A program made the translations under genes and the position numbers. Below the pieces are notes generated by a model that saw only the letters and a list, made by a program, of their open reading frames with translations, ran no database searches and was not told the origin of the DNA. A DNA stretch of 64,000 bases from an uncultured bacterium. GTDB taxonomy: Bacteria; Omnitrophota; Omnitrophia; Omnitrophales; Aquincolibacteriaceae. This document shows, in pieces, positions 23,761-55,505 of this stretch (the stretch's first letter is position 1; each line of letters begins with the position of its first letter). The DNA lies in contig CAYZYT010000001.1 of the NCBI GenBank assembly GCA_964482725.1, forward strand, positions 270,912 to 334,911, given 5' to 3'.

Positions 23761-23846
23761 GATCTTGTCAGCTCCTTTTTCATCATTCACTTAAAAGCAT
23801 CCACTCGACATGGGACCCTCGCGGACAAACAGCGGCAGGCCTAACA

Positions 23847-24599
23847 TTATTTTTCTTTAAAAAGCTCGCCTATCTTCTTCAAAAGATCCGCTTCATTGCG
23901 ATGAGACACAACCTGATCCTCCGTAAAAGTTTTTAGAACCTCTCCGAAAAGTCTCTCTTCGCAGTAAACAAAAAAAGATACCTCGCTAAGCAAGGGGTGC
24001 CCCTCAAGTTTCTCTTTGAGTTTCCGAGCGTCGACAATACTCTCATCCTCCCAGAATTGGCAAAAAACATGGGCGGCATTGAGCTGCTTTGTGAGATGAA
24101 AGGCATCCTCCTCATTCAGCGCCTTAAAAGTCTGGAACCCAAGCGCATTGACCAACATTTGAAGTTTATTGGTAAGAGCCTCCTGGACGCCAAGAAACAC
24201 CACTCTCCTAGAACCATCCGGATCCCTCTTTTCGCTCTCCCAAAGAAGCCTTTCGATCCTGGCGAGCAAGGTCCGGATCTCATACGGCTTCAGCATGAAC
24301 TCTACGCCGTTAAGGTCCGTGAAAAAAGCCCCCATGTTCTTATTGGCGGAGAGGATGATCGCAGGAATTTTTCGAAGCTCCTCCGCATCGCGCACTTTCT
24401 GAAGGACTTCATAACCGGTCATTTTCGGCATCATGACATCCATCACGATAAGATCCGGTTTTTGAGCTCTCACTGCGCCCAAAGCCTCGGCTCCGCCCGC
24501 GGCCGTACAAACCTCGTAACCCGACGCCATGAGCTGTTGGGTCAGGGTAGCTACAATCGTCGGGCTATCATCCACGACAAGGATCTTTTTAGAAGGCAT
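23847..24599 (-). CDS. REC + pseudo-receiver protein, paralog 2 of 4
   Basis: Same architecture. DNA 23941-24120 is ~95% identical to 23101-23280 (offset 840 bp). Confidence 0.75.
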   Translation of the reverse strand: MPSKKILVVDDSPTIVATLTQQLMASGYEVCTAAGGAEALGAVRAQKPDLIVMDVMMPKMTGYEVLQKVRDAEELRKIPAIILSANKNMGAFFTDLNGVEFMLKPYEIRTLLARIERLLWESEKRDPDGSRRVVFLGVQEALTNKLQMLVNALGFQTFKALNEEDAFHLTKQLNAAHVFCQFWEDESIVDARKLKEKLEGHPLLSEVSFFVYCEERLFGEVLKTFTEDQVVSHRNEADLLKKIGELFKEK

Positions 24600-24688
24600 G
24601 TCTTTAAAAACTCCTCATGAATCATTACTTCGAACGGCTTGGTCAGAAGGGGGTCGACGCGAAAAAACAGCTGCGGCCTAGTACCGTG

Positions 24689-25441
24689 TTACATTTCCTT
24701 AAAAAGGTCGGCAAGCTTTTCCAAAAGCTCGTTCTCATCACTGTAAATAATGACCCGTCCGTCTGCAAAAGTCTTCCGAGCCTCGCCGGAAAGCCTCTCT
24801 TCGCAATAAACATAAAAGGGTACTTCGCTAAGCAACGGGTGCCCTCCGAGCTTTTCTTTGAGTTTGTGAACATCGCCCCCTCCCGCATCCTCGCAGAATT
24901 GGCACAAGATATTCCCGGGATTCAGCTGCTGCGCCAGATGGAAGGCATCCTCCCCGTTCAGCGCAATAAAAGCCTGAAAACCAAGCCCCTGGATCGCCAT
25001 CTGGAGCCTTTGGGTAAGAGCCTCTTGGCCCCCAAAAAGCACCACTCGCTTGTAACCATCCGGGCTCTGCTCCTCGCTTTCCCAAAGAAGCCTTTCTATC
25101 CTGGAGAGTAAGATCCGGGTCTCATACGGCTTCGGCACAAACTCTACGCCATGAAGGTCCGTGAAAAATTCTCGCATACTCGGCTTTGCTGAAATAATAA
25201 TCGCGGGAATTTTCCGAAACGCATCCGTTTCTCGGATCTTTTGGAGCGCTAGATAGCCGGTCATTTTCGGCATCATCACATCCATCACAATAAGATCCGG
25301 CTTCTGCGACTGCACCATCACCAAGGCCTCGGCTCCATCCACGGCCGTACAAACCTCGTAGCCGGACGCAGTCAGCCGCTTGCCAAGGATCGCCACAAGA
25401 TTCGGATCATCATCCACCAGAAGGATCTTTTTGGATGCCAT
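24689..25441 (-). CDS. REC + pseudo-receiver protein, paralog 3 of 4
   Basis: MASKKILLVDDDP...DLIVMDVMMPKMTGY; C-terminal CQFCED...YCEERL. Confidence 0.75.
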   Translation of the reverse strand: MASKKILLVDDDPNLVAILGKRLTASGYEVCTAVDGAEALVMVQSQKPDLIVMDVMMPKMTGYLALQKIRETDAFRKIPAIIISAKPSMREFFTDLHGVEFVPKPYETRILLSRIERLLWESEEQSPDGYKRVVLFGGQEALTQRLQMAIQGLGFQAFIALNGEDAFHLAQQLNPGNILCQFCEDAGGGDVHKLKEKLGGHPLLSEVPFYVYCEERLSGEARKTFADGRVIIYSDENELLEKLADLFKEM

Positions 25442-25460
25442 GCCTATTTAAAACTCCGCT

Positions 25461-26213
25461 TCATGACTCCTTTAAAAACTCGCTTATCTTATTTAAGAGC
25501 TCTTCCTTGTCGCGATACATAATGATCCGCCCCTCCACAAAAGATTTGCGAGCTTCAACCACGATTCTCTCTTCGCAATAAACATAAAGAGGCACCTGTT
25601 TTAGCAGAGGATGGGTCGCCAGTTTTCCTTTGAGCTTTTGGGCGCTCAGGATGCTTTCATCCTCCCAGAACTGGCACAAGATATTCCCGGGGGTCACCTG
25701 CTGCGCCAGCTGGACAGCATCCTCCTCGTTCAGTGCGATAAAAACCTGAAAACCGAGCGAACGGGCCAGCATTTGGATCTTATTGGTAAGAACCTCCTGG
25801 ACTCCCAAAAGCACCATCCGTTTTGAACCATCCGGATTCTGCGTTTCGCTTTCCCACAGAAGCCTTTCCACCTTGGACAGAAGTACCCGAGGATCATACG
25901 GTTTGGGGACAAAATCAATAAAGGGACGGTCCTTAAAAAATTCCCGCATACTTCCTTTGGCTGAAATAATGATCACCGGGATCTTCCGCCATTCATCCCG
26001 CTTGCGGATCATTTCAAGGACCTCATAGCCGGTCATCTTCGGCATAAGGACATCCAGAATAATAAGGGCGGGCTTTTCCGATCCCATCTTCGCGAGAGCT
26101 TCTTCCCCGTTCATGGCGGTGGAAACCTCATACCCGGAAGACATGAGTCGCTGTGCCAGGACGGCCACGATATCCGGGTCATCATCCACTACGAGGATCT
26201 TTCTAGATCGCAT
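25461..26213 (-). CDS. REC + pseudo-receiver protein, paralog 4 of 4
   Basis: MRSRKILVVDDDP...LIILDVLMPKMTGYE; C-terminal CQFWEDES...YCEERI. Confidence 0.75.
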   Translation of the reverse strand: MRSRKILVVDDDPDIVAVLAQRLMSSGYEVSTAMNGEEALAKMGSEKPALIILDVLMPKMTGYEVLEMIRKRDEWRKIPVIIISAKGSMREFFKDRPFIDFVPKPYDPRVLLSKVERLLWESETQNPDGSKRMVLLGVQEVLTNKIQMLARSLGFQVFIALNEEDAVQLAQQVTPGNILCQFWEDESILSAQKLKGKLATHPLLKQVPLYVYCEERIVVEARKSFVEGRIIMYRDKEELLNKISEFLKES

Positions 26214-31119: not shown

Positions 31120-31187
31120 CGTCATTCCCGCGAAAGCGGGAATCCAGAAAGAGTCTGGATCTCCGACAGAAACATCCGGGGATGACA
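31120..31187. repeat. copy 3 of bipartite palindromic MITE-like element
   Basis: gtcattcccgcgaaagcgggaatcc + ggatctccgacagaaacatccggggatgacat; hairpin order inverted relative to copies 1 and 2. Confidence 0.6.
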
Positions 31188-31198
31188 TAAAATCATGG

Positions 31199-42732: not shown

Positions 42733-42947
42733 ATTCCCTCCAAGATCAACAGGGACAGGTCTGCTTTGCACTCCTAGACCAGTCCCTAAAAAAAAGTGAC
42801 AGTCACCAGTAAAAGTGACTGCCACCAACAATGTTAGGCCTGTTCGAAGTCAACAGGGACAGGTCTGCATTGCACTCCTAGACCAGTCCCTTATTCCCTC
42901 CAAGACCAACAGGGACAGGTCTGTTATTCCTTCCAAGACCTGTCCCT
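42733..42947. repeat. hairpin-repeat family 1, locus A: 3 units of ~56 bp (spacer attccctccaagaYcaac + hairpin agggacaggtctg-N13-agaccWgtccct)
   Basis: Hairpins at 42751-42787, 42855-42891, 42911-42947. Lies between autotransporter stop (42962) and the terminator, i.e. in its 3' UTR. A 66-bp insert with small palindromes gtgacagtcac / gtgactgccac between units 1 and 2. Confidence 0.7.
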
Positions 42948-42961
42948 GAAAAAACGAGGTG

Positions 42962-45900
42962 CTAGAAATCGTACCGAACGGTGCCGTAATAGGTATTGCT
43001 CATGTACTGGTCCTTGAGCTCGATATCCCAATTCCCGGTCATCGTCATGTTCCCTTTATTCAGAAACGCGAGTTCCGCGCCGAAGAGCATCCCGCTCTTC
43101 GCCGGCTTGGCGCCCTGGGTGTTGAAGGAACTCCCGCCGCCCGCAAAACTGGCCGTCGTTTCGAACCGGTCTCCAATATAATCATAGAGCCAGGCCGCCT
43201 TCGCAGAAGGAATGAACGTCCCGACCTTCTTCGCGACCAAGGGATACGCCAGCTTCGTCCCAAGCCCCTGCTCCAGCTGATGGAACCCTTCCCCATTCAC
43301 GGTCAGATTCAGCGAATCCGCGCCCTTTTCCTTATACTTGTTCATGTAAAGATAGTTGTAGCCCAACGACACGAACGGCGTCACCTCCAGTGCCTTCGTC
43401 TTCTCGAAAACGAACTTATAGCCCGTCTCGAAATTCGTCGAATACTGCTGGCCCGCATGGTCCGCTTTCGCGACGCGCCCCGAAGTCGGCGTCACCCAGA
43501 TCTCGCGCCGGCTTTCGTAATCATTTTGCGTGAAAGCCGCCATCCCGTCCACATACCACGAATTCTCGACTTGGCTGCGCACCGCTTCATACGACCTTTT
43601 CCCGCTCTGGCGTGCCTTGTTGAGATCCAGCGAATCGAAACTCCCGTAGATCGTCGCCTGATAACTATTGATATCATCCGAGGGACTCCCCGCGGTCTTC
43701 GATTTCACACGCGCCCAGCCAAAACTCCCCGCGAAACCCGCACGGAAATGATCATCCAGCACTTTATCCGCGCCGACGGTCGTCCCGAACAGATTCCCCA
43801 TGTAGCCTTCGATCCCTTTGCGCGCGTCCTGCTTGATGTGACTCCCAAGCGCCTGCATCCAGACACCGACCCCGTCGAGCCTTTCTCCGCTTGAAACGCC
43901 GGAACCCGAACCCCCGCCGTTACGCGCGCCGCCCAACCGGTTGCCGATCGTCGTGAATCCCTGACTCGTCAGTGAACGGCTCCCCTCCGCCGCCCCCGAA
44001 CTCACGTCAGGATGCATCGTGTCCAACGCCTCGTTATATTCAGAATCCGAGAGTCCGCCCAGCATGTCCAGAACATTGTTCATATCGAACCCCGGATTGG
44101 TAATCCCGGCAAGAACCCCGGCCACTGCCGCGGCGTTGCCTGACGCTCCCGGAGCAGGCGCGAAATCGTTGGACGAAGTCAACACCAGATCCCCGCTATC
44201 CTCGCTTGCCGCAAACTTATAACGACGCGTACTGCTCGTGGTCGTCGGAACAATGTTGCCGACGCCGAAACTGCTCGCATCGATGACCGTGAATTCCGTA
44301 CCTGGCATGATCGAAAGCCCGGAATTAACCGTCACATGGACTTTGCTCCCGGCTTCCAACGTCGTCTTATCTCCCTCAATAACGAGACCGTTCTGATCGG
44401 CACTGGCACCATAAATGGTCAGCCCCAGGGTCCCACCTTTTAGATTAAATTCTTCTCCGACATTCAAGGTGTTCTCACCGACCGTCACATTGTAGGTATG
44501 AAGATCCCCAGTGATCGTCGCATCAGAATTCCCCGTAAGATTCACTGCTTTCGGAGCACCGCTACTGCCTCCAACGTCCCCGGTAAGGATAGTGGCGCCT
44601 TCAAAAATCAGCGTCCCGGTGCCGTCAGTGAGCATTGAAACGTTAGCAGTAATGTTATATCCGCCAGCCATTTTCACAAAACCGTCGCCATTAAAGTAAA
44701 GCGCGTCAGTTGCCGTCAGATCTCCGTTCATTTGCAACGTCCCGGTCCCCACCACAGCATCATAGGCATAAATATCGCCGTTGACCGCGGCATCCTCTCC
44801 GTTGAAATAAACCAACTTAAGAACCTCGCTGTCTGTACCTATATCTCCATTAACGGTAGCATTGGCGTTAAAGGTCACGCTCCCATAGATGTTCCAATCG
44901 GTTTTGATGCCGTTACTCTCCTCTGAGGGAGCCTCGGCCTTCCCAATCGTCGCGTTATCGTTGAACGTGACCTCTGGATTTGTACGCTCCTCCGCACCGT
45001 GCGGGCTGGATTTCAACCTCAGATAATCGAGATAAACATCCGCGTTGAAAGTCGTGTCCTTGTGGACGCTTACGGTGGAAAGATACGCATCGCTCGAGCC
45101 TACTTGTCCCTCCACGGTCGCGCTTTCCTTAAAAACGACTTTCCCGAGGTCTGCCCCTTCGCTCGTGATCGTAATACCACCGTCCCCGATAGAAGCGTCG
45201 CCATAAAATACGACGGAGGTGCTGGCGCCACTCCCGGTAAAATTCAAACTGTCAACATAGACGTCATAAACAGGGGCATCTACGGTATCGATATCGTTTC
45301 CAAGGTGAACTGTATGCCCCCCCTCAGTAACATTGATCGCCTTAAGATATTTCCCGGAGATGTCCCCATCCGCAGCTTCGCCGATCTGTTTTGTCACAAC
45401 GCCATCGCCGCTGAAAGTAAGCGTTCCCTGACCGTCATGCTGGGTCTTGATTGGATGATAGATCCATTCATTGTCTCCCAAGATCACTTCCCCGTCGTCC
45501 GTGAAGATCAAGGTTGAGTTCGGTGTGCCAGGCTCATAAAACGACCCGTTTAATTCCAAAGTCCCGGCGCCAACGTACATATCGGTCGCATAAACATCGC
45601 CGGTGATCGCGACTGTCGTGAGCGAACCCCCTTGCAGATCGATAAGCTTCAACGCATCCGTGCCATTACCGATCTGCCCATCGACCGTGCCATACCCTTC
45701 GAAAGTCAGGGTGCCTTCATTATCGTTTTGGGAAGTGATATTAGAAGTGATGGTATGACCATCTTCCAAAATCACTTCGCCGTCATCGGTAAAAGTAAGC
45801 GTTTCTTCGGATGTTGTGGTCAGATCGCCGTTCATCTGCAAGATTCCGGCTCCAACGTAAACGTCATTCGCCCAAAGGTTACCATTGATCGTGACCGTCG

Positions 45901-48900
45901 TCCCCTTGGCGCCATCGATGTTCACTTCACTTAAAGCCGCATCACTCGTACCAATAGCATCCTGGTAAGCGTCTTCAATAAGCTCTCCTGTAACCGTGGC
46001 GTTGCCGTTAAAATTCACGATCCCATAGCCGTCGTACTCGGTCGTGATGCCGCTTTCCCCGATATAGGCGTCCGCATTAAATGTGGCTTCTGCGTCTTCC
46101 CTCGTGCTGCTGAATTTCAACTCATCCACATAAACATCACTATTAAAAGTCGTTTGGCGATCCGCGCGTATCCTGCCAAGATATGCATCAGCTGCGCCGA
46201 CCTGGCCGTCAATGGTCGCATCGCGCTTAAAAGCGACGATCCCATGCCCGGCCCAATCAGTCGTAATACCACCTTCCCCGATATAAACCACCGCTGCGTC
46301 CTTGAACGTAACCGTTGAATCGTCCCCGGGGCCTCCCATTCCTTCAAATGCCAACTCCTCAATATAAACAGGGCTATATAACTTGACGTCATAATTACTG
46401 TCAGCAGCCTGTGTAACAATAATCTTGGAAAGGGACGCTCCCTCCTCGCCAACCTGCCCGGTAACTTCACCATCCCCTTCAAAAGTCAGCGTACCCTGGC
46501 CGGAAGCAGTGACGTTTCCGTCAATATCAACGCCATTGGCCAATTTCAATACGGCATCACCCGAAAAGTTGTACAGGGGTGAATCCTGGGTCGCGGTCAG
46601 ATAAAGCGTCCCGGCATTGATCGTGGTCCTCCCGCTGTAAGTATTCTCATTGGTGAAGACCACTTCGCCCGTACCGGACTTGGTGAGCGAACAAGAAAGT
46701 GAGTCCGTGTCGTAATCTTCAATGAGGGAATTGACAGTGAACGTGCTGCCTGAAAAATTGGTCAGGATCAACTCCCCGCCGTCGGTAGCCGCGGTCAAAG
46801 TCCCGACCCCGCCCTCGGATCCCGTGTCACCCAACGTCAGGGCGGTCGAGAGAGAACCTGCGAGAATGCCGCTTGTTTGCAACGTGTAGCCATCAAAGTC
46901 GACTGTCACCGGTGCATCTTCGGCGCTCTGGTTGAGCGTGTTGATGGGGGTCAGATCATCAAGAATGTACGCTCCGCCCTCGGTGATTTGGACATTACTG
47001 GTCGCATCACTAGGGCCGATGGGGGTGTAGCCCGTGTACGCCACGATATTGCCGTCTTCATCGACAGTCGCCCAATCTGTGCCATCTACGGTGGCCCAAG
47101 CGCCGAGGATGCCGTTGACATTTTCCCGGGTGGTCATGATCGAGTTGTACTCATCATCTTGTGTCCCGACAAAATTGATCGTCGCGCCTGTGTTGCGTTC
47201 GATATTTCCAAGATCTAAGCCGAGAGAATTTTCATCGTTCGAAAGCTCTATCGTCGAAGCGCCACTATTGAGTCTCAATCCGTCGAAATCCTGATAATTA
47301 TTGTCAGAAGATGATCCCGTGAGAAGCAGCTTTCCACCCCAGAGCCCTAAGGATGACTCCGCAGAAATGATGTCAACATTCGTAGCCGCCGTCGCGAAAT
47401 CCAGATTCAGCGTGCCCGCGACGAGTCGTGTGTCACCGGTATATTCGTTGCTACCGCTTAAAGTGAGCTCTCCCTCGCCATATTTCCCAAGATTATAAAC
47501 CCCGATGATGCCACCGCTGATCGTTAGAGTACTGCCGCTATCCACCTCAATCCCAGCATTGCCGGCAAGCATGATATCTCCAGCCCAGCTGTTGTCCCCG
47601 CTTGCACTATAAAGAGCTCCCTTGGAAAGATCCGAGGGACCGTCCAGCGTCAATGCCACATCGCCAATAACGATATCGTCTCCACCGTTGCTGTCGAGCT
47701 TGAGAATGCCGCCGTCAGCAACCTCAACGCTGTCGGTCTCTCCTAAAGCGTTGCTGTTAGTGATCGTGAGGGTGCCTTCATTTATATAGGTCGCGCCGGT
47801 GTAGCTGTTCTCGCCGTTCAAGATCACTTCCCCGACGCCGGACTTGACCAGGGATGAAGACGCGACCGGATCCGTCCATTCATCGATAGAAGCATTGATC
47901 GTGAGATTCCCGAGAGTGCTGTTATTGATAAGGACTATTTCGCCATTCTCCGTTGCGGCATACAGGGAACTGTCATCTGGTTCCACGCCTAGCGTCAGCG
48001 AACCCATGCCCTCACCAATCATGATGCCATTGACATCAAGAGCCTTTTCGTCTCCTGACGCTATGTCAACAGTCGCTGCGGCTGCTGTATTTTGCAAGAG
48101 AGTATTGATCGTGAACCAATCACTCGGATCCGTAGTCGCTCCCAAAGTGATTGGCGCGCCCGCCTCCCCCGCAGCAGTATTGATTCGAACATTCGTGTTC
48201 GCTCCGTCGGTGATCACACTGCCATAGGCATCGATGTCCGTATAGTCGGTGTAGGCCGTGATATTCGTTTCATCACCATTGGATGAACCAACTGCCCAGT
48301 CGGTCCCGCCGACAGTGGCCCACGCGCCCAGAATGCCGCTTGCAAGGTTTTCCGTGGTGGTGGTCGCGATATTTTCCGCTCCAAAGTTAATCACACCACC
48401 GGTCCGGATAATTCCGTTCATTCGGAGGGTCGTTCCTTCGCCACCATCGTCAATGGTCTGAATGATATTGTTGGCGCCGCCGGTGATCCTGACCGATGCA
48501 ACAGCTTCCACGTATTCGCCGTTGTGGAGCTCAAGCGTACCCCCGCTCATCCACAGATCGCTCCCGGACAATTTCGAAGTCTCGTAGTCGCTATAATCCA
48601 GCTTAAGCGTGCCAGCTTCCAACCAGGAGTTGGCTCCGAAGCTGATATTTTCGCCGCTTAATGTAAACGTTCCCACATCAGCTTGATCAATTTCGCCCTC
48701 GATATCGATGTTTCCAGAAATAAGGGTTTCGCCGGAACCCCAAACGCCCAAAGAATTATTTCCCGAGATATCACCCGTGAGTCTAAGAGTGCTTCCGTAG
48801 TCGGCGCCCACCCACGATGCGACATCCACACCGTCCAACGATATATTGCCAGTCCAGCTGTTGTCCCCACTTGCGCTCCAAAGGGCTGCCCCGTCTACGG

Positions 48901-50698
48901 AAGGCCCATATCCGGAAATTGACAAATCCTTACCCTCTATGGAAATATTGTCTTGAAGATCCAACTCCGCGCCGTAGGCAACCTCAACATCTCCCCCGAT
49001 CCCCAAGGCGCCGTCGCTCGTGGCAACAAGAATGCCTTCATTAATATAAGTCGCGCCGGTGTAGGTATTGTCGCCAGTGAGCGTCAGAGTCCCTTCGCCG
49101 GATTTGGTCAGGCCGATGTCGTCACCGTTATCTTGAATCACCGATCCAATCGTCAGATCGTTGTCTGTGTTGTTCTGGATGATCACCAGGTCTGCACCGC
49201 TGGCTCCTTGAAGATAGCCGCCGGTGATGGTGGAAAGATTATCGCCGACATTGCCGGTAACGAGAATGCCGCCGGAGGAAATGATATTTTCCCCAGTCAA
49301 AGTGAGCGTGTATTCGCCCTCATCGTTGAAGCGCAGGCTGTTAGGCGTGATCTCCCCCTCCGGAGTCTGTGTGCTGTCCACGCTAATGTCTGCACCGTCA
49401 TAGCTGGCCGCATCATCTTCAACGTCTGAGGTGTAGGTATAGTCTCCGGAATCAAGCGCAGTAATTTGCCCGACATCGGCACCGTCTCCCGCGCTAATCG
49501 CCCAGTCCGTCCCACCAACCGTCGCCCAACCGCCCAAAATGGTATTCGCCGTGTTGGCCGTCATAGTCGTAATACCGTTGACAACGGGATCATTCACCAC
49601 GATTGGAAGTGTAAAATCGACCGTGCCGCCGGCATCGCGGCTGATCTCTCCGAGATTCAGTAAAAGATCATTTGCGCCTACACTGTTATCAAGCGTGATC
49701 GCGGAAGCACCGCTATTGATTGTTATTCCATTGTCAAAGGTCTGGATGTTCGCGTCCGAACCGCCTGTGAGCAGCAGTGTCCCACCGTTGAGCTCCAAAT
49801 CCGTACCACTGTCGAGAATGTCATCCTGAACATTGTCCGCCGAAAAATCGAGATTCAGCGTCCCTCTATTGAGCGTCACGGTGTTGGCATCAACCTCATC
49901 TTGAAAAGTTACGGTCGTTCCGCCGCCGCCGTTCACGTTAATGGTCCCAAACTTGTCACCATCCAAACCGATAGCACCTGTGACAGTGGCGTCATTCTCA
50001 AATATTAAAGTTCCGGTATTATCATCGTTATAGGTGTCGACCGTTCCAAGAATGGCTGTGCCGCCGATCCGGATCTCGCCATCGCCCTCAAAATTTAAGG
50101 CATCAGCATAAATGTCCCCGTCGAAAATCACCGTCCCGGCGTTAATGTTCATTTCTGAAAGAGATTGCCCTTCGGCCCACATATCACCAGTAAATGTGGC
50201 AGAGCCCAAAAAATTAAGCGTTCCGGCAGAGCTATCACCGCCAATCAACAGATCCGTAACAAAAGAGTGCCCATCTGCAAGATTCAGTACATTGGCCGCG
50301 CCATCGCCTGTGAATTGCATACGGGAACCCGAAGTAAAATCAATATCTCCATCGATCGTCACGGTAGCAACGCCTGAAGTGCCAAGATCGATGCGATAAC
50401 CCGAGCTATCATCGGTCAAATCTCCGGTAAATGTGTTGGTTCCGGCAAATACCAGGATCCCGTTCTCCCCCGTCAGTGTCGCCGTGCCAATGTTAGGATT
50501 TGTAGCATCCTCCACATCCATCCAGCCGCTTATGCTTGTTGCATTATCTGCGCCCGTTAAGGGCCCAGATGGAACAGGCGACCACGATCCAGCCGTCCCC
50601 CACTCACCACCTGTTGATGTATAGTCTGCCGCAAACGCGGGCGTCACAGGTGAGAAAACGAGGGAAAGGATCGCAACGATGGACAGGAGTTTTTTCAT
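42962..50698 (-). CDS. giant autotransporter (type Va) protein with multiple autotransporter-associated beta-strand repeats and C-terminal beta-barrel translocator
   Basis: Start at MKKLLSIVAILSLVFSPVTPAFA (ATG 50698), not ORF start 50761. At least four PATR-type repeats (e.g. LTKSGEGTLTLTGDNTYTGATYINEGIL). C-terminal ~280 aa barrel ending ...YGTVRYDF. 2578 aa. Confidence 0.85.
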   Translation of the reverse strand: MKKLLSIVAILSLVFSPVTPAFAADYTSTGGEWGTAGSWSPVPSGPLTGADNATSISGWMDVEDATNPNIGTATLTGENGILVFAGTNTFTGDLTDDSSGYRIDLGTSGVATVTIDGDIDFTSGSRMQFTGDGAANVLNLADGHSFVTDLLIGGDSSAGTLNFLGSATFTGDMWAEGQSLSEMNINAGTVIFDGDIYADALNFEGDGEIRIGGTAILGTVDTYNDDNTGTLIFENDATVTGAIGLDGDKFGTINVNGGGGTTVTFQDEVDANTVTLNRGTLNLDFSADNVQDDILDSGTDLELNGGTLLLTGGSDANIQTFDNGITINSGASAITLDNSVGANDLLLNLGEISRDAGGTVDFTLPIVVNDPVVNGITTMTANTANTILGGWATVGGTDWAISAGDGADVGQITALDSGDYTYTSDVEDDAASYDGADISVDSTQTPEGEITPNSLRFNDEGEYTLTLTGENIISSGGILVTGNVGDNLSTITGGYLQGASGADLVIIQNNTDNDLTIGSVIQDNGDDIGLTKSGEGTLTLTGDNTYTGATYINEGILVATSDGALGIGGDVEVAYGAELDLQDNISIEGKDLSISGYGPSVDGAALWSASGDNSWTGNISLDGVDVASWVGADYGSTLRLTGDISGNNSLGVWGSGETLISGNIDIEGEIDQADVGTFTLSGENISFGANSWLEAGTLKLDYSDYETSKLSGSDLWMSGGTLELHNGEYVEAVASVRITGGANNIIQTIDDGGEGTTLRMNGIIRTGGVINFGAENIATTTTENLASGILGAWATVGGTDWAVGSSNGDETNITAYTDYTDIDAYGSVITDGANTNVRINTAAGEAGAPITLGATTDPSDWFTINTLLQNTAAAATVDIASGDEKALDVNGIMIGEGMGSLTLGVEPDDSSLYAATENGEIVLINNSTLGNLTINASIDEWTDPVASSSLVKSGVGEVILNGENSYTGATYINEGTLTITNSNALGETDSVEVADGGILKLDSNGGDDIVIGDVALTLDGPSDLSKGALYSASGDNSWAGDIMLAGNAGIEVDSGSTLTISGGIIGVYNLGKYGEGELTLSGSNEYTGDTRLVAGTLNLDFATAATNVDIISAESSLGLWGGKLLLTGSSSDNNYQDFDGLRLNSGASTIELSNDENSLGLDLGNIERNTGATINFVGTQDDEYNSIMTTRENVNGILGAWATVDGTDWATVDEDGNIVAYTGYTPIGPSDATSNVQITEGGAYILDDLTPINTLNQSAEDAPVTVDFDGYTLQTSGILAGSLSTALTLGDTGSEGGVGTLTAATDGGELILTNFSGSTFTVNSLIEDYDTDSLSCSLTKSGTGEVVFTNENTYSGRTTINAGTLYLTATQDSPLYNFSGDAVLKLANGVDIDGNVTASGQGTLTFEGDGEVTGQVGEEGASLSKIIVTQAADSNYDVKLYSPVYIEELAFEGMGGPGDDSTVTFKDAAVVYIGEGGITTDWAGHGIVAFKRDATIDGQVGAADAYLGRIRADRQTTFNSDVYVDELKFSSTREDAEATFNADAYIGESGITTEYDGYGIVNFNGNATVTGELIEDAYQDAIGTSDAALSEVNIDGAKGTTVTINGNLWANDVYVGAGILQMNGDLTTTSEETLTFTDDGEVILEDGHTITSNITSQNDNEGTLTFEGYGTVDGQIGNGTDALKLIDLQGGSLTTVAITGDVYATDMYVGAGTLELNGSFYEPGTPNSTLIFTDDGEVILGDNEWIYHPIKTQHDGQGTLTFSGDGVVTKQIGEAADGDISGKYLKAINVTEGGHTVHLGNDIDTVDAPVYDVYVDSLNFTGSGASTSVVFYGDASIGDGGITITSEGADLGKVVFKESATVEGQVGSSDAYLSTVSVHKDTTFNADVYLDYLRLKSSPHGAEERTNPEVTFNDNATIGKAEAPSEESNGIKTDWNIYGSVTFNANATVNGDIGTDSEVLKLVYFNGEDAAVNGDIYAYDAVVGTGTLQMNGDLTATDALYFNGDGFVKMAGGYNITANVSMLTDGTGTLIFEGATILTGDVGGSSGAPKAVNLTGNSDATITGDLHTYNVTVGENTLNVGEEFNLKGGTLGLTIYGASADQNGLVIEGDKTTLEAGSKVHVTVNSGLSIMPGTEFTVIDASSFGVGNIVPTTTSSTRRYKFAASEDSGDLVLTSSNDFAPAPGASGNAAAVAGVLAGITNPGFDMNNVLDMLGGLSDSEYNEALDTMHPDVSSGAAEGSRSLTSQGFTTIGNRLGGARNGGGSGSGVSSGERLDGVGVWMQALGSHIKQDARKGIEGYMGNLFGTTVGADKVLDDHFRAGFAGSFGWARVKSKTAGSPSDDINSYQATIYGSFDSLDLNKARQSGKRSYEAVRSQVENSWYVDGMAAFTQNDYESRREIWVTPTSGRVAKADHAGQQYSTNFETGYKFVFEKTKALEVTPFVSLGYNYLYMNKYKEKGADSLNLTVNGEGFHQLEQGLGTKLAYPLVAKKVGTFIPSAKAAWLYDYIGDRFETTASFAGGGSSFNTQGAKPAKSGMLFGAELAFLNKGNMTMTGNWDIELKDQYMSNTYYGTVRYDF

Positions 50699-50789
50699 GG
50701 GAATCATGTGGGGGAAATCTCCGTTTTGTTTTGAGAGAGAAAGGCTTGCGACTTTTTTCAAAATTGGGGTTGACCCCTATTTTTTCACT

Positions 50790-50853
50790 GTCATCCCCGC
50801 GAAGGCGGGGATCCATGCTCCGGATTCCCGATAGAAGCATTCGGGAATGACAT
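50790..50853. repeat. copy 2 of bipartite palindromic MITE-like element, 92-155 bp upstream of autotransporter start
   Basis: gtcatccccgcgaaggcggggatcc + atgctcc + ggattcccgatagaagcattcgggaatgacat. Confidence 0.6.
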
Positions 50854-50963
50854 GCGACGGAAAGAATCGATATGGATAAAACCAATCAGCCCAAAGACTT
50901 ACGGCATAAAACTTACAACCTTGATGGGGCGAATTCTACCTTCACGGCTGGAAAGGCGCAACC

Positions 50964-51029
50964 TTTTTTCCTTCTTTTTTCCTTCTTTTTTCCTTCTTTT
51001 TTCCTTCTTTTTTCCTGCTTTTTTCCTGC
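50964..51029. repeat. simple-sequence repeat: 11-bp unit ttttttccttc x4 plus ttttttcctgc x2
   Basis: Read directly. Lies in divergent promoter region between autotransporter (minus; start 50698) and small secreted-protein gene (plus; start 51229). Confidence 0.85.
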
Positions 51030-51228: not shown

Positions 51229-51504
51229 GTGACTCCTATGAAAAAACTTGTGGCAGTTTCAATGTTTGGAATGTTGTTCCTTTCGCTCGCGCTTCCCCTT
51301 TCGGGGGCGGCAGAGGACGACGCAACGGGAACGGGGATGAGCGGGACTTCGCAGGAATTGGCGGATCTTCAGAAAACGATGAGAAGTGAACGCATGGATA
51401 ATCTTGAGCAGAGCGTCGCCGAGATGAAACAAGCGATCAGTTCCCTCTCCGATCGTGTCCAGGATCTGGAACGGACCGTGGATGATTTCAACGGCCGGCA
51501 GTAA
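51229..51504 (+). CDS. small secreted coiled-coil protein (hypothetical)
   Basis: Signal peptide MTPMKKLVAVSMFGMLFLSLALPLSGAA. GAGG-type RBS. Its 3' ~100 bp plus downstream 40 bp are duplicated at 53668-53808. Confidence 0.5.
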   Translation: MTPMKKLVAVSMFGMLFLSLALPLSGAAEDDATGTGMSGTSQELADLQKTMRSERMDNLEQSVAEMKQAISSLSDRVQDLERTVDDFNGRQ

Positions 51505-51536
51505 GCACTGTTAAGAACGCTTTCCCTCCCGCTATC

Positions 51537-51685
51537 AGGGACAGGTCTGCTTCGCAGTCTTAGACCTGTCCCTAATTCCCTCCAAAACCCACAGGGACTG
51601 GTCTGCTTCGCACTCCTAGACCTGTCCCTTATTCCTTCCAAAACCCACAGGGACTGGTCTGCTTCGCAGTCTTAGACCTGTCCCT
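51537..51685. repeat. hairpin-repeat family 1, locus B: 3 tandem units (hairpins 51537-51573, 51593-51629, 51649-51685)
   Basis: agggacWggtctgcttcgcaStcYtagacctgtccct with spacers aattccctccaaaacccac / tattccttccaaaacccac. Confidence 0.7.
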
Positions 51686-51758
51686 GTGTTAACGAGACGC
51701 CGTCCGCGACTCGCAATTCATAGTGTCCGTTTTTCAATAGGGCTGATGTGTGTTTTAC

Positions 51759-51787
51759 TTGATTTATGTGTATCCACGTATTATACT
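51759..51787 (+). promoter_or_regulatory. near-consensus sigma70-type promoter TTGATT-N17-TATACT, followed by AAGGAGG RBS (51799-51805) and ATG 51811
   Basis: Hexamers and 17-nt spacer read directly. Confidence 0.45.
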
Positions 51788-51810
51788 CATAGTAAGAAAA
51801 GGAGGCTATT

Positions 51811-52029
51811 ATGCCAAACATGACGCTCTCGATACCGGCAGAATTGAAGATGAAAATGGACCGCTTTAAGGAGATCAACTGGTCCGAAGTCGCGAGGCAG
51901 GCTATTTTTCAAAAGACCCTGCTCATGGACAAGATGAACCAGATGATGTCCTCCAGCAAGATCAGCGAGCCGGAAACCCTGTACGCGGCCCGTAAGATCA
52001 GCCGCAAAGTCTCCCAAAGACACAAGTAG
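51811..52029 (+). CDS. ribbon-helix-helix-like small protein (putative antitoxin/regulator)
   Basis: N-terminus MPNMTLSIPAELKMKMDRFKEINWSEVARQAI fits RHH beta-strand + two helices. Strong promoter and RBS. Confidence 0.45.
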   Translation: MPNMTLSIPAELKMKMDRFKEINWSEVARQAIFQKTLLMDKMNQMMSSSKISEPETLYAARKISRKVSQRHK

Positions 52030-52036
52030 CACCCCT

Positions 52037-52288
52037 ATGGAACTGGTCGTCGACGCGAACGTCCTTCTCGCGGGCTTCATGAAAGCGGCTGTAACGCGGG
52101 AACTTCTTCTGGACAATCGCTTGAAATTGCACGCTCCGGAGCACTTGATCTATGAAACCCGGAAACACCTTTTGAGCAGCTCCCGGCTTCGAAAGCGTAT
52201 CAGCCTGTTGCCCAAGCAGATCGAGGAGATATGGTTCATCCTCACGCAAAACATCGAATCCCACGCGCCCGCAAGCCTCAATAATTGA
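52037..52288 (+). CDS. PIN-like N-terminal fragment (83 aa; probably truncated VapC-like toxin)
   Basis: MELVVDANVLLAGF resembles PIN N-terminal motif (first conserved Asp). Length too short for a complete PIN domain. Confidence 0.35.
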   Translation: MELVVDANVLLAGFMKAAVTRELLLDNRLKLHAPEHLIYETRKHLLSSSRLRKRISLLPKQIEEIWFILTQNIESHAPASLNN

Positions 52289-52341
52289 TTATTGGTAAAC
52301 ATATGATTGATTTATAATAAATGTTGTGATAGCGTATCCTC

Positions 52342-53358
52342 ATGAAGAACATGCTAAAAAAAAGAGGGCTTTATTCACGCGTCAGAAAGATCCTGGCGCA
52401 GGCGCGCTTAAGGGTGGCTCGTGCGATCAATACCGAGATGGTCCGGGCCTATTGGATGATCGGACGCGAGATCGTCGAAGAGGAACAAAAGGGAGAAGCG
52501 CGCGCCGGATACGGGCAAAAAATCCTGGAAACTCTTTCCGGACGTCTGGCGAATGGGTTTGGCGAGGGAGTTGATGCCAGCAATTTGTGGAATATGCGTA
52601 AGTTTTATCAAACCTATCCAATTCTCGACGCAGTGCGTCTAGAATTGAGCTGGACCCACTATCGTATCTTGATACGGGTTGACTCCCCCCAAGCGCGATC
52701 GTTCTATGAGATCGAATGCATCAAAAGCAACTGGTCGGCCCGGGAACTTGAACGTCAGAAAGGCTCGCTCCTTTTTGAACGGCTTGCCTTATGCAAAGAC
52801 AAAAGAGGGTTGATGAAATTAGCCCGAAGAGGACAGAAGCTTCAAACCTATAAAGACATGATCAAGGACCCGTATGTTCTGGAATTTACGGGCCTACCCT
52901 CTCGCTCCAAACTCTATGAAAGCCACCTGGAGCAGGCGCTTATTGAAAATCTCTCGAAATTTCTGTTGGAATTGGGGAAGGGGTTCACCTTCGTTGCGCG
53001 TCAAAAACGCATTACCCTGGAGGGCGATCATTTTTATATTGACCTGGTGTTCTACAACACGATCCTGAAATGCTTTGTGCTCATTGACCTAAAGATCGGC
53101 AAGCTCGCGCATCAAGACATCGGGCAGATGCAGATGTATGTGAACTATTACGACCGGAAATTAAAGGGATTGGATGATAACCCCTCGGTCGGTCTGATCC
53201 TTTGTGAGGATAAAAAGGAAGCGGTCGTGAGATACACTTTGCCGCATGGGGAAAAGCGGATCTTTGCTTCCAGATATAAGCTTCATTTGCCTACGGAAAA
53301 AGAGTTAAAGCAAGAACTGGCGCGGGAAAGACCGTTGCTGATCGCCTCTCAGGCATAA
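52342..53358 (+). CDS. DUF1016 / YhcG-family PDDEXK nuclease-like protein
   Basis: DLVFYNTILKCFVLIDLKIG...GQMQMYV core; C-terminal ...YKLHLPTEKELKQEL motif. Confidence 0.7.
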   Translation: MKNMLKKRGLYSRVRKILAQARLRVARAINTEMVRAYWMIGREIVEEEQKGEARAGYGQKILETLSGRLANGFGEGVDASNLWNMRKFYQTYPILDAVRLELSWTHYRILIRVDSPQARSFYEIECIKSNWSARELERQKGSLLFERLALCKDKRGLMKLARRGQKLQTYKDMIKDPYVLEFTGLPSRSKLYESHLEQALIENLSKFLLELGKGFTFVARQKRITLEGDHFYIDLVFYNTILKCFVLIDLKIGKLAHQDIGQMQMYVNYYDRKLKGLDDNPSVGLILCEDKKEAVVRYTLPHGEKRIFASRYKLHLPTEKELKQELARERPLLIASQA

Positions 53359-53410
53359 AACAACATATCCAAAAACTCGCACCGCTGGTGCGAGAAATAG
53401 GCTGAACTAA

Positions 53411-53515
53411 GCATTCCATGTCGCCACTTACCGGATCACTTCCCGTCTTCCCCACGAACTAAAAAAAGAGCTGCCGGGGCCGGAGCAGATCGCCTATCTT
53501 CTCGAAAAGATCTGA
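53411..53515 (+). pseudogene. 3' remnant of a further DUF1016-family gene
   Basis: Own translation: ...VATYRITSRLPHELKKELPGPEQIAYLLEKI*. Matches the C-terminal motif of both DUF1016 proteins (...YK..LP.E.ELK.EL...). In-frame stop immediately upstream, no start codon. Confidence 0.35.
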
Positions 53516-53559
53516 CCGCCGTTCCGACGAAACCCATAGGTGTTGGAACGGAGGATTTC

Positions 53560-53766
53560 ATGCTGCAACTTACGCCCGGAGAAGCCCGCTCTTTAAGGTC
53601 GCAAATTGCGCCCTTAAAGAAACGAGCTCGCGGAGGACATCGAAAATACCTTCCCTACGCCTTTACGGAGCAGAGCGTCGCCGAGATGAAACAAGCGATC
53701 AGTTCCCTCTCCGATCGTGTCCAGGATCTGGAACGGACCGTGGATGATTTTAATGGCCGGCAGTAA
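53560..53766 (+). pseudogene. chimeric ORF whose last 33 codons duplicate the 3' end of 51229..51504
   Basis: DNA 53668-53808 ~96% identical to 51406-51546. N-terminal part unrelated (MLQLTPGEARSLRSQIAPLKKRARGGHRKY). Confidence 0.3.
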
Positions 53767-53823
53767 GCGCTGTTAAGGACGCTTCCCCTCCCGCTATCAG
53801 GGGCAGTCACCGGCGTGACAACA

Positions 53824-53860
53824 GGGACAGGTCTGCTTCGCATGCCTAGACCTGTCCCTG
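53824..53860. repeat. hairpin-repeat family 1, locus C (single unit) preceded by small palindrome gtcaccggcgtgac
   Basis: agggacaggtctgcttcgcatgcctagacctgtccct. Confidence 0.65.
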
Positions 53861-53906
53861 AAAAAAAGAATCCAAAAAAAAGTAACTGTCACCAACAATG
53901 CGGGGA

Positions 53907-55505
53907 CTACGACTTCGGGGAATCCAGCAAAACGATGTGCGGATTTTTTTCCTGGAAATTCCTGAGGAGCCACTCACTGAGGAAAAGAAGGACCCGCCGT
54001 CCCTGTTCATCGCGGGCCAAGGCCGCGCCATAAGAAAGCACATCGCCAAGGTCGGTGTCCGTAAGCGCGCACTCGGCCCATCTCAGGATCTTCCACGGCA
54101 ACATTTCAAGCTGCGACTCCGCGCCGTATTCTTCCTTGAGCCGGTACTGCAGCACTTCATATTGAAGAGGGCCGACGGCTCCCAGGAGCGCCGTGTTCGG
54201 ATTGGCCGGCTTGATCCAGCTGAAGACCTGAACGATATCCTCGGCAAGCAAATGCTCCAAACCTTTCCGGAAGGGTTTGTACTTTCCCGGCGAGGGATTA
54301 TGGATCGAGGCGAAACATTCCGGCGCGAAGCGCGGGATACTGTTAAACACGACGGAGGGGTCTTCGCTCACGGTATCCCCGACGCGAAAATCCGATTTCA
54401 CAGCAAATCCAACAATGTCCCCCGGATAGGCCTCATTCACGGTCTCGCGGCTTTGCCCCAAAAGCGTGTGCGAGCCCGCGATCCTGATCTTTTTTCCGGT
54501 CCTCGTGTGATAAGCGTCCATATCCCGCGTGAATTTTCCGGAACAAATGCGCAAAAAAGCGATCCGGTCACGGTGGAGCGGGTTCATGTTGGTCTGGATC
54601 TTGAAGATGAACCCGGAAAAATCCTTGGAGGTGACGGGGATCGCCCGCTCCCCGGCTTTTCGGTCCGCCGGCCCCGTGGAGTATTTGACGAACCCGTCGA
54701 GCAGAAGCTGAACGCCGAAGTTATTCGCGGCACTTCCAAAAAAAACAGGCGTTGTTTTTCCTTCGAGCACCGACTCGGGAGAAAATCCGACATGCGCCGT
54801 GTCGAGGAGCTCGAGCTCTTCCGCCGCGGCGGCATACGACTGCTCATCCACGATCGTTTTCACCGCAGGATCCGAAAAACCGTGCATCGACACCGGCGCT
54901 TTGTAGGCCCCGCCGGGAACTTTCTGAAAAAGATGCACTTCCTTTTTAAGGCGGTCATAAACTCCGCGGAATTCCCGGCCGCTCCCCAGAGGCCAGTTCA
55001 CCGGATAGGCATGGATCCCCAGGACGGTTTCCAACTCATCGATCAGCGCGAGAGGCGCGAGGCCCGGACGGTCGAGTTTATTCATGAAGGTAAAGATCGG
55101 GATCCCCCGGTGGCGGCAGATCTCGAAAAGCTTACGGGTCTGGCTCTCGATGCCTTTTCCGGAATCGATCACCATGACCACGGCATCCACGGCCATGAGC
55201 ACCCGGTAGGTATCTTCCGAAAAATCTTTGTGACCTGGCGTATCAAGCAGATTGATCCGCCACGGACCGTAATCAAACTGAAGAAGCGTGGAGCTGATGG
55301 AGATCCCGCGCTTCTTCTCCATTTCCATCCAGTCAGAGGCCGTTTCGCGCTCCTGTTTTCGGGCGGTCACCGAGCCCGCGAGCTGGACCGCTCCGCCGTA
55401 GAGAAGGAACTTTTCCGTGAGGGTGGTTTTCCCGGCGTCCGGATGCGAAATAATCGCGAACGTCCGTCGCCTCAAAATTTCATCGTGGATCAGGCCCGTT
55501 TGCAT
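53907..55505 (-). CDS. prfC: peptide chain release factor 3
   Basis: G-domain motifs AIISHPDAGKTTLTE, DTPGHKDF, NKLDR; 532 aa, typical RF3 length. Confidence 0.9.
   Translation of the reverse strand: MQTGLIHDEILRRRTFAIISHPDAGKTTLTEKFLLYGGAVQLAGSVTARKQERETASDWMEMEKKRGISISSTLLQFDYGPWRINLLDTPGHKDFSEDTYRVLMAVDAVVMVIDSGKGIESQTRKLFEICRHRGIPIFTFMNKLDRPGLAPLALIDELETVLGIHAYPVNWPLGSGREFRGVYDRLKKEVHLFQKVPGGAYKAPVSMHGFSDPAVKTIVDEQSYAAAAEELELLDTAHVGFSPESVLEGKTTPVFFGSAANNFGVQLLLDGFVKYSTGPADRKAGERAIPVTSKDFSGFIFKIQTNMNPLHRDRIAFLRICSGKFTRDMDAYHTRTGKKIRIAGSHTLLGQSRETVNEAYPGDIVGFAVKSDFRVGDTVSEDPSVVFNSIPRFAPECFASIHNPSPGKYKPFRKGLEHLLAEDIVQVFSWIKPANPNTALLGAVGPLQYEVLQYRLKEEYGAESQLEMLPWKILRWAECALTDTDLGDVLSYGAALARDEQGRRVLLFLSEWLLRNFQEKNPHIVLLDSPKS

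Follow-up and report, generated by a model that had tools for sequence, protein, structure and literature searches.

How does a small gene that is still whole come to be followed by a second copy of its own 3' end, with a toxin-antitoxin (TA) module, a nuclease gene and several gene stumps in between? The question is raised by a locus next to prfC in the 64-kb stretch of Omnitrophota DNA that was analysed here (the window, 64,000 nt). The two copies, designated A and B (Table 1), are identical at 133 of 139 positions (96%) and lie 2262 nt apart, measured from start to start. The initial annotation of this DNA had described a direct duplication of ~140 bp at ~96% identity, with hairpin units behind each copy, and the repeat comparison within the window bears this out, with three units after copy A and one after copy B. 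Self-comparison of the 64-kb window revealed no other such repeat pair. The six mismatches between the copies (repeat positions 84, 87, 102, 111, 118 and 136) all fall into the final 56 nt, and the motif CCCTCCCGCTATCAGG is found at the two repeat sites only. Copy B is followed by a 24-nt piece, GGCAGTCACCGGCGTGACAACAGG, which has CAGGG repeats at its bounds and is absent from copy A. Since homology resumes past this indel through one hairpin unit, the duplicated block extends over ~51406-51575 and 53668-53861, respectively. The right boundary of the repeat, which had been taken as a sign that the hairpins mediate recombination, is only a 24-nt indel of the slippage type.

Table 1. Features of the small-gene/prfC interval, with positions in the window.
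Feature	Position	Strand	Description
Small gene, intact	51238-51504	+	From the ORF list; 88 aa, signal peptide and coiled coil; final 99 nt belong to copy A
Repeat copy A	51406-51544	+	3' end of the small gene and 40 nt beyond; without the 24-nt segment
Tandem array of three hairpin units	51536-51685	+	56-nt period: 12-bp stem, 13-nt loop, 18-nt linker
TA module	51735-52268	+	Homologous to the widespread Omnitrophota RHH_12-PIN_2-ORF71 module
DUF1016 block	52269-53358	+	AT-rich leader (52269-52341); intact gene (52342-53358) for a 338-aa DUF1016_N + YhcG_C PD-(D/E)XK nuclease
Two stumps of a second DUF1016 gene	53364-53515	+	Two reading frames; ~200 codons lost internally
ORF6N-domain gene fragment	53551-53673	+	~41 codons, both ends cut; ends ...YLPYAFTEQ; overlooked in the initial annotation
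Repeat copy B	53668-53806	+	3' piece of the small gene, displaced; continues the frame of the ORF6N fragment
Native-type downstream segment	53807-53906	+	Mini-hairpin GTCACCGGCGTGAC within the 24-nt piece; a single hairpin unit (53824-53858); A-rich tail

An empty site, as predicted in the initial annotation, is present in a close relative that is represented by two contigs with ~95-97% nucleotide identity. In this relative, the small gene is followed by 255 bp with two hairpin modules, and then by prfC. Relative to it, the genome studied here carries an insertion of 2,262 bp, whose start falls within the final 99 nt of the small gene. The GC content of the insertion is 47-50%, compared to 53-58% in the flanks. 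Over the initial 83 nt of the repeat, A, B and the relative do not differ. Over the 139 positions, copy B differs from the empty site once and copy A five times, with all five differences in the final 56 nt (9%). For comparison, the divergence from the relative amounts to 33/789 in prfC and to 5/168 in the part of the small gene that lies 5' of the repeat. Copy B, the 24-nt piece, the hairpin and the tail are collinear with the relative; copy A lacks the 24 nt and runs into another, three-unit array. Right after the hairpin of copy B, there are 6 mismatches in 95 positions and one missing module, and the start of prfC diverges by ~4%. The stop codon of prfC (53907-55505, minus strand) lies directly after the native-type segment. 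The closest species-level genome in GTDB (94% amino acid identity in prfC) is of no use at the site, because its contig stops 12 codons before the prfC stop.

Judging from 44 homologues, mostly of 88 aa and in several cases named Candidatus Omnitrophota, the product of the small gene is a conserved protein of this phylum. Against Pfam, it gave weak coiled-coil matches and nothing else. Exact-product searches with the small protein, from the 88-aa as well as the 80-aa start, and with the 68-aa ORF that runs into copy B returned no match.

The genes that had initially been read from the insert (an RHH gene, a truncated PIN gene, a whole DUF1016 gene and a DUF1016 remnant) are all backed by profile or tblastn matches, and the promoter-like site is present as described. 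For the small ORFs, whose HMM search had been suggested as a check, the assignments are RHH_12/VapB-like, a part of PIN_2, and DUF1016_N together with YhcG_C. The TA module aligns with its Omnitrophota homologues at high nucleotide identity, with proteins that are 89-94% identical; over the intact modules of other Omnitrophota, the range is 85-94%. A promoter-like site (TTGATT-N17-TATACT, 51759-51787) and the ribosome binding site AAGGAGG, both also kept in one of the homologues, precede an RHH/VapB-like gene (51811-52029) for 72 aa. An identical product is assigned to RHH_12 (PF26688) by precomputed annotation; the ORF matches the NCBIfam VapB profile under the cut-off (E 7e-6) and has no match in the local Pfam copy. 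After a gap of 8 nt, the PIN gene starts at 52037. Its 83-aa ORF covers the N-terminal 71 of the 133 positions of PIN_2 (Pfam, E 3e-5). Homology to other TA modules breaks sharply at 52268/52269, at PIN codon 77 of ~140, and the ORF continues to 52288. PIN homologues have 137-141 aa, and here the C-terminal 60 residues are gone, including the EDAPYLALA and WSNDK motifs, so that the 83-aa ORF falls short of a whole PIN domain with its full set of conserved acidic residues. As the toxin lacks this part, the module presumably consists of an orphan antitoxin and a dead toxin. A separate, independent truncation of the PIN gene is seen in another genome. In another sample, a homologous module is found on a contig of 1,099 nt with identical 30-nt ends.

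The DUF1016 block contains an intact gene. Its 338-aa product matches both DUF1016_N (PF17761, E 3e-45, 154 bits, cut-off 32.8) and YhcG_C (PF06250, E 6e-59, 199 bits, cut-off 32.5) in Pfam, and both profiles are covered end to end. Among the PADLOC PDC-S02 profiles, the best match has an E value of 1.2e-143, with residues 6-330 on profile positions 12-339 of 351, in agreement with the suggestion that the cargo is of the defence-islet type. The stretch GDHFYIDLVFY ... VLIDLKIGK, read by eye from the translation, fits the D...DxK pattern. The nearest metagenome homologues are 75-76% identical and stand in unrelated contexts. Near the homologues in the metagenome scan, all at most 76% identical, there was no RHH, PIN or ORF6N gene and no hairpin, and therefore they do not point to a donor. 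The DUF1016 block is not flanked by direct or inverted repeats. Of the cargo, just the genes for the antitoxin and the DUF1016 nuclease are intact; these two may act in defence.

The cargo is a mosaic: the PIN gene is cut by the DUF1016 block, this block abuts an older DUF1016 gene, and the ORF6N gene is cut at both ends. Of the two stumps of the older DUF1016 gene, one (~53364-53408), which had been overlooked, matches residues 93-108, and the other (53411-53515) matches residues 308-339 and the stop codon. The latter, a remnant of 34 codons, is 72% identical to residues 308-336 of a 339-aa DUF1016-type PDDEXK protein of Anabaena sp. 90. The stumps belong to another subfamily than the intact DUF1016 gene. 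Remnant peptides have no Pfam match on their own, and were identified by tblastn against annotated plasmid genes. The ORF6N fragment covers positions 44-81 of the 86 in the Pfam profile (E 3e-5, 24.7 bits, below the cut-off of 27.8), so that a complete ORF6N domain is absent from it; tblastn to annotated ORF6N proteins gave an E value of 6e-8, with 57% identity to residues 50-93 of a Legionella protein. The nested stumps show the block to be the product of several insertions or deletions. To this extent, the proposed repeated cassette replacement is supported. The further claim, that the site is a hotspot, is not borne out, because just a single filled state and a single empty one were seen. 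None of the remoter homologues of the small gene (~80% amino acid identity) adjoins prfC, and synteny is therefore no test of a hotspot. The older rearrangements could have taken place in a donor, and not at this site.

At the right end of the insert, the ORF6N fragment and copy B share one frame, which gives rise to a fusion ORF of 68 codons (53560-53766). The hexamer GAGCAG (53668-53673) is common to the ORF6N fragment and the small gene. Intact ORF6N proteins read on as FTEQGVA, which resembles LEQSVA of the small gene, and hence the microhomology was possibly longer, GAGCAGnGCGTCGCC; beyond GAGCAG, it is deduced from the ORF6N consensus and not from the actual parent gene. All ORFs and stumps between the repeats are accounted for, and none is a recombinase. 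A recombinase gene was also not found among the annotated genes ~14 kb to the left and ~4.5 kb to the right; the neighbouring genes include PFK, autotransporter, prfC, ZIP and Era.

The hairpin unit has the form GGGACWGGTCT-N13-AGACCWGTCCC. Seven copies are present at two intergenic sites in the 64 kb, where none is expected by chance. The stems are near-perfect palindromes of 11-12 bp, with at most one, central mismatch. An Rfam search assigned the hairpins to no family, and the pattern was not found in IMG/VR viral contigs.

The locus is best explained, with a probability of about 0.6, by DNA of a related lineage that carried an already decayed islet and entered by one homologous exchange and one illegitimate joint. 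The donor would have had the small gene with an A-type end, followed by three hairpin units and an islet with the RHH antitoxin, the truncated PIN gene, the DUF1016 nuclease gene, the older DUF1016 stumps and an ORF6N gene. The 83 nt that are identical in both copies and in the relative leave room for a homologous crossover, and the exchange would have taken place inside this block. The illegitimate joint would have formed at the short microhomology GAGCAG (53667/53668). The insert carries both marks of such a product, continuous homology at one flank and the GAGCAG joint at the other. Linear DNA could have entered in one step, by homology-facilitated illegitimate recombination, or a circularised fragment could have integrated by a single crossover. 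In either case, the small gene would have stayed whole, composed of its native 5' part and an incoming 3' end (copy A), and the native 3' end (copy B) would have been pushed downstream and fused to the ORF6N stump beside prfC. Recombination between A and B could excise the block again. That copy B is native and copy A incoming is suggested by six variable sites and by the collinearity with one relative. The left edge of the cargo, at the foot of the third hairpin unit, is left to the history of the donor by the model. A donor-type arrangement, with the small gene, three hairpins, the cassette and an intact ORF6N gene, was not found in the collections scanned.

A target-site duplication, in which both copies were made at insertion, can be rejected. 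In that case, copy B, being unconstrained, should be no closer to the relative than copy A, and it is closer. The different hairpin arrays at A and B also speak against it.

The polarity may be the reverse of the one assumed above. The islet would then be old in the lineage. Ancestrally, the small gene with its A-type end would have been followed by the three hairpins, the cassette, an intact ORF6N gene and further genes up to prfC. DNA of the relative's empty-site type could later have brought in copy B, through a homologous anchor on the prfC side and an illegitimate joint at GAGCAG, or a microhomology-mediated deletion could have fused a second small-gene copy to ORF6N; part of the island would have been lost either way. 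The distance of copy A from the relative equals the background in the 5' part of the gene and in prfC, copy B is unusually close, and the ORF6N and DUF1016 stumps show that the block has undergone deletions. However, the mismatches and the missing module after the hairpin of copy B, followed by ~4% divergence, leave no visible donor tract anchored in prfC, and an additional, unseen ancestral state is required. We therefore consider this reading unlikely. It is rather more doubtful that the insert is the remnant of an integrase-driven element at the 3' end of the small gene, with A and B as attL and attR and a recombinase gene that has since been deleted. Islands in the 3' ends of tRNA, tmRNA or protein genes leave an intact gene with an element-borne 3' end and a displaced native end. 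The locus shares this geometry, including the imperfect (96% identical) direct repeats and the empty site in a relative, and deletions inside the block are documented. Yet there is no recombinase gene in the 2.26 kb or the annotated surrounding genes, the insert consists of gene fragments, and no related element was found elsewhere in the collections scanned. Moreover, the repeat edge is an in-frame, motif-continuous fusion to a cut ORF6N gene, which resembles a microhomology joint and not an attP edge.

A mis-join of the assembly over the 83-nt exact repeat is very improbable. It would imply that an empty site exists alongside a 2.26-kb form of its own, circular or in tandem, or that two strains were merged. 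Assemblies with short k break at precisely these repeats, the contig of the closest GTDB genome also ends beside the site, and at k=31 the two resolutions are indistinguishable, since the unitigs do not phase the 83-nt block; the integrated form is thus as in the given assembly. However, independent assemblies of three read sets (SRR12261223, SRR12261224 and SRR12261227) recovered the cassette and the ORF6N junction with 30 nt of the repeat, the repeat is shorter than normal reads and can be phased by assemblers, the window lies in a 356-kb contig, and a circle of 2.26 kb that lacks a replication gene is an implausible replicon. The involvement of the hairpins, which the initial annotation had suggested, is not borne out either. 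In this scenario, REP-like hairpins would be recombination substrates, at which cassettes are captured or replaced in an integron-like manner or by a hairpin-specific transposase in trans. The cargo does begin at the very foot of unit 3 (51685/51686, with CCCT followed directly by GTGTTAACG), a hairpin stands behind each copy, this genome and the relative have different numbers of modules, which means that the arrays do recombine, and the TA module on the 1,099-nt contig has identical ends. But the sole junction that must be new (53667/53668) joins coding to coding DNA, ~150 nt from the nearest hairpin. There is no cassette in the second array of the window (42752-42946), TA homologues in other genomes do not have this hairpin at their flanks, and the annotated surroundings showed no gene for an integrase or a transposase. 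The near-perfect palindromes have neither R''/L''-L'/R' attC boxes nor extrahelical bases, the cassette edge lacks a GTTRRRY core, and the cassette has its own promoter-like site. We regard a role of the hairpins as highly unlikely. The chances are slimmer still for the more general idea that direct-tandem hairpin arrays in Omnitrophota could be landing pads for promoter-bearing defence or TA cassettes, served by a recombinase that is specific for the hairpin and encoded elsewhere, in an integrase-distant, integron-like system. Two of the above observations favour this idea, the start of the cargo at a hairpin foot and the identical ends around the homologous TA module.

Ordinary homologous and illegitimate recombination can explain the insert. 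The locus is a clean natural case, from an uncultured phylum, of foreign cargo that enters a housekeeping neighbourhood with the target gene kept intact, and it illustrates the decay of TA and nuclease genes into stumps. For annotators, it is a worked case in which a 68-codon ORF is a fusion artefact and an 83-aa PIN protein is probably dead. The event itself is ordinary and raises no new question; of its elements, just the hairpin repeats as a family may be worth a genome-wide look.

The hairpins share with REP/BIME palindromes and integron attC sites that they are short, stable and tandem, lie downstream of convergent genes and vary in copy number between strains. They differ in that every unit is in direct orientation with a fixed period of 56 nt, that they belong to no Rfam family, and that no RAYT or IntI gene was seen near the array. 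Unlike attC sites, they are without R/L boxes and extrahelical bases, and unlike a promoterless integron cassette, the cassette here has its own promoter-like site and ribosome binding site. The TA module has the gene order of type II VapBC systems (promoter, RHH antitoxin, 8-nt gap, PIN toxin), with a toxin that is C-terminally cut by 60 residues. The DUF1016 gene resembles other DUF1016/YhcG nucleases (PDC-S02) in its full-length match to both domains, its solitary position, its own AT-rich leader and the many unrelated contexts of its homologues. In PADLOC, PDC-S02 is a candidate phage-defence system only.

With respect to the proposed route, the locus is most similar to laboratory events. 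Homology-facilitated illegitimate recombination and insertion-duplication have been described for Acinetobacter, S. pneumoniae, P. stutzeri and E. coli (PMC3240628; references 41, 42 and 47 in PMC5361080). The former combines the same type of homologous anchor with an illegitimate joint at a short, few-base microhomology. In the E. coli cases of single-crossover integration given in PMC3240628, the homologous locus is duplicated over 109-950 bp around the foreign DNA, and the 140-190 bp observed here match this range. In those experiments, the events were obtained with selected markers, whereas here the event is deduced from a single natural genome and a single relative with an empty site. Among natural systems, the displaced 'orphan' arrays of T6SS effector-immunity and Rhs/CDI loci, as outlined in PMC5361080, are comparable. 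According to that account, the incoming DNA has the conserved 5' part in common with the resident gene and adds a new 3' part with cargo, the old 3' part is kept downstream as a stump, and repeated events lead to strings of remnants. In contrast to the T6SS and Rhs/CDI loci, both 3' ends encode the same amino acids in the present case, and there is thus no functional diversification of the small gene. The anchor here is a small secreted coiled-coil protein and no toxin, and the cargo consists of TA and nuclease genes.

The two copies of the direct repeat, copy A and copy B, lie where the initial annotation had placed them, at a spacing of 2,262 nt and with 133 of 139 bases identical, and they are the sole such pair in the 64-kb window. 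They are the same over the first 83 nt and differ at repeat positions 84, 87, 102, 111, 118 and 136; at the first two of these, copy A has C (51489 and 51492) and copy B has T (53751 and 53754). Two of the six differences fall in the final codons of the small gene, where both are synonymous, and four lie past its stop codon. What looks like the right edge of the repeat is an indel of 24 nt (GGCAGTCACCGGCGTGACAACAGG, with CAGGG on either side), which is present in copy B and absent from copy A. Beyond it, the homology resumes and spans one hairpin unit.

The DNA between the copies (the insert) is located in housekeeping surroundings, in the order phosphofructokinase, autotransporter gene (minus strand), small gene (plus strand), insert, and then prfC, ZIP transporter and Era (minus strand). 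For the small protein, prfC and the PIN fragment alike, the nearest named homologues are in Candidatus Omnitrophota MAGs, and prfC has 72 protein relatives with at least 90% identity. The window itself is part of a 356-kb NCBI contig. The GC content is 47-50% in the insert and 53-58% in the flanks, and a recombinase gene was found neither in the insert nor among the annotated genes around it. Elsewhere in the window, four tandem paralogous genes of about 250 aa follow each other at a spacing of about 770-840 nt, with 66-85% nucleotide identity.

Features of the insert, its surroundings and other repeats, in window positions
Feature	Position	Strand	Remarks
Short repeat family, 3 copies	16833-16880, 31141-31188, 50806-50853
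Four paralogous genes	23005-26213	-	tandem
Hairpin units, 3 copies	42752-42946	+
Autotransporter gene	42962-50761	-	2,599 aa; PATR repeats and beta-domain
11-nt tandem repeat	50963-51027		divergent promoter region
Small gene	51238-51504	+	88 aa; signal peptide, coiled coil; 3' end in copy A
Copy A	51406-51544
Hairpin units, 3 copies	51536-51685	+	56-nt tandem array just past copy A, then 49 nt of unique sequence
Toxin-antitoxin module	51735-52268		RHH gene and PIN_2 gene
DUF1016_N + YhcG_C nuclease gene			past the toxin-antitoxin module, after an AT-rich leader; intact, 338 aa
Stumps of a different DUF1016 gene, 2			directly after the stop codon of the intact gene
ORF6N-domain gene fragment			about 41 codons, before copy B
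Inverted repeat	53590-53620		within the ORF6N fragment
Copy B	53668-53806
Hairpin unit, 1 copy	53824-53858	+	past copy B

All cargo genes belong to known families. The 72-aa RHH gene, preceded by a promoter-like TTGATT-N17-TATACT with AAGGAGG in the promoter region 51759-51810, has a product identical to a member of PF26688 (RHH_12) and is VapB-like (E 7e-6). The PIN_2 gene covers just the first 71 of 133 profile positions, and intact homologues have 137-141 aa and are 85-94% identical. Nucleotide identity to the Logan contig L176 is high from the promoter onwards and ends abruptly at 52268/52269, which indicates that the toxin has lost its 60 C-terminal residues, two conserved acidic motifs among them. 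The family tests accepted the DUF1016 gene, rejected the VapBC module on its toxin, and recognized ORF6N as a fragment only. The DUF1016 protein matches the PADLOC candidate PDC-S02 (E 1e-143). The stumps behind its gene match residues 93-108 and 308-339 (the latter with 72% identity) of an Anabaena sp. 90 pANA02 protein; the initial annotation had correctly seen a DUF1016 remnant in the second stump, but had overlooked the first, as well as the ORF6N fragment. The last codons of this fragment (...YLPYAFTEQ) continue in frame into copy B (SVAEMKQ...), forming a fusion ORF of 68 codons. Taken together, the PIN, old DUF1016 and ORF6N stumps are traces of three or more earlier insertions or deletions. 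The inverted repeat in the ORF6N fragment has 15-nt arms (TCTTTAAGGTCGCAA/TTGCGCCCTTAAAGA, 93% complementary) and a 1-nt loop.

Contig L176 (1-1099) carries a homologous, intact RHH_12-PIN_2-ORF71 module. Its first 30 nt equal its last 30 nt: the contig is a unitig that closes into a circle, or else direct repeats bound the module. Within this end repeat lies GGGACAGGT, a sequence that the hairpin arm in the window also includes. In another Omnitrophota MAG (GCA_043803685.1, contig L180, 7773-12333), the same RHH gene is followed by a PIN gene that is cut elsewhere, at codon 58 (58 aa), and then by a different island, which comprises genes of unknown nature along with an HTH gene and a gene fusing DUF1016_N to SNase. 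That truncation is independent of the one in the window, and decay of the toxin-antitoxin module beside variable cargo may therefore be recurrent.

The initial annotation had proposed a search for an empty site, and such a site was found in a close relative, on two contigs from other samples (L083 from ENA and L084 from JGI; small gene 96.6% identical at the amino acid level, prfC 94-96% at the nucleotide level). There, the small gene is followed by 255 bp with two hairpin modules and then by prfC, and the cassette is absent, which favours an insertion or deletion polymorphism. The gene end of the relative agrees with copy B at 138 of 139 positions, and shares with it the 24-nt piece as well as the loop of the hairpin and the A-rich tail. 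With copy A it agrees at 134 of 139, all five differences being within the last 56 nt. Background divergence from the relative amounts to 3% for the 5' part of the small gene, 4.2% for prfC and 6-7% for intergenic DNA. A hotspot, which had also been suggested, is not established by one filled and one empty state. Small-gene homologues at about 80% identity have other neighbours. The cassette is also present in independent Logan assemblies (SRR12261223, SRR12261224 and SRR12261227), as are the ORF6N joint together with 30 nt of the repeat and prfC followed by the B-type tail. These assemblies break at the repeats, and with k=31 they do not distinguish integration from the combination of an empty site and a circle. 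In the closest species-level genome (L003, 11200-11560), the contig stops beside the site, 12 codons short of the prfC stop, which suggests that repeats at this place break that assembly too.

The autotransporter gene is only 66-78% identical to its counterpart in L083 at the nucleotide level, whereas identity is about 95-97% in the neighbouring small gene and in prfC; the autotransporter gene looks like a hypervariable surface protein gene. Between it and the small gene lies an 11-nt tandem repeat (CTTTTTTCCTT, 5.9 copies, 98% identity) that is not present in L083 and could be slippage-prone (phase-variable).

The sole junction in this structure that must be new is 53667/53668, between the coding fragment of ORF6N and the coding portion of the small gene, which have GAGCAG in common. 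In intact ORF6N proteins the sequence goes on as FTEQGVA. This is similar to LEQSVA in the small gene, and thus the parental microhomology may have been longer. On the left side, a single crossover anywhere within the 83-nt identical block would suffice; on the right side, an illegitimate joint at the GAGCAG microhomology would be needed. This combination of one homologous exchange and a joint at a microhomology is characteristic of homology-facilitated illegitimate recombination, and is topologically equivalent to the single-crossover integration of a circularised fragment. Copy B would then be native, and copy A would have come in with the cargo, a polarity to which we assign a probability of about 0.6. 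With the reverse polarity, which is less probable, an old island would have lost a part, either when an empty-site allele was imported or through deletion at a microhomology; only six informative sites bear on this choice. Under either polarity, the cargo was already located directly behind the donor's or ancestor's own copy of the small gene.

The initial annotation had attributed the recombination to the hairpins. Seven members of the family (GGGACWGGTCT-N13-AGACCWGTCCC) occur in the window, each on the plus strand, against none expected by chance. The units fold stably, and the family has no Rfam match and is absent from IMG/VR. The cargo starts exactly at the foot of the third unit, and this genome and the relative have different numbers of modules, in a pattern that fits unequal exchange between modules, so that the arrays are dynamic. 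Yet the diagnostic junction is away from any hairpin, the other array in the window has no cassette, this hairpin does not occur beside homologues of the toxin-antitoxin module elsewhere, attC features are missing from the stems, and the cassette comes with its own promoter. Mediation by the hairpins is thus unsupported, and we consider it very improbable. The copies sit downstream of convergent genes and are parts of composite modules that also include an A-rich tail and a GACAGTCnCCAAC motif. Another family of short repeats (CGGGGATC...GGATTCCCGA...CATTCGGGAATGACAT) is represented three times in the window.

The finding is real and had been described largely correctly, but it is an ordinary one. 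In direct comparison, the insert differs from an integron, since it has neither a recombinase nor attC features, and from an integrase-borne island, since it has no recombinase. Its architecture is instead that of a known kind of recombination product. Single-crossover events in E. coli duplicated the homologous locus over 109-950 bp (PMC3240628), and recombination of the same kind has been proposed to account for the displaced orphan arrays of T6SS and Rhs loci (PMC5361080).
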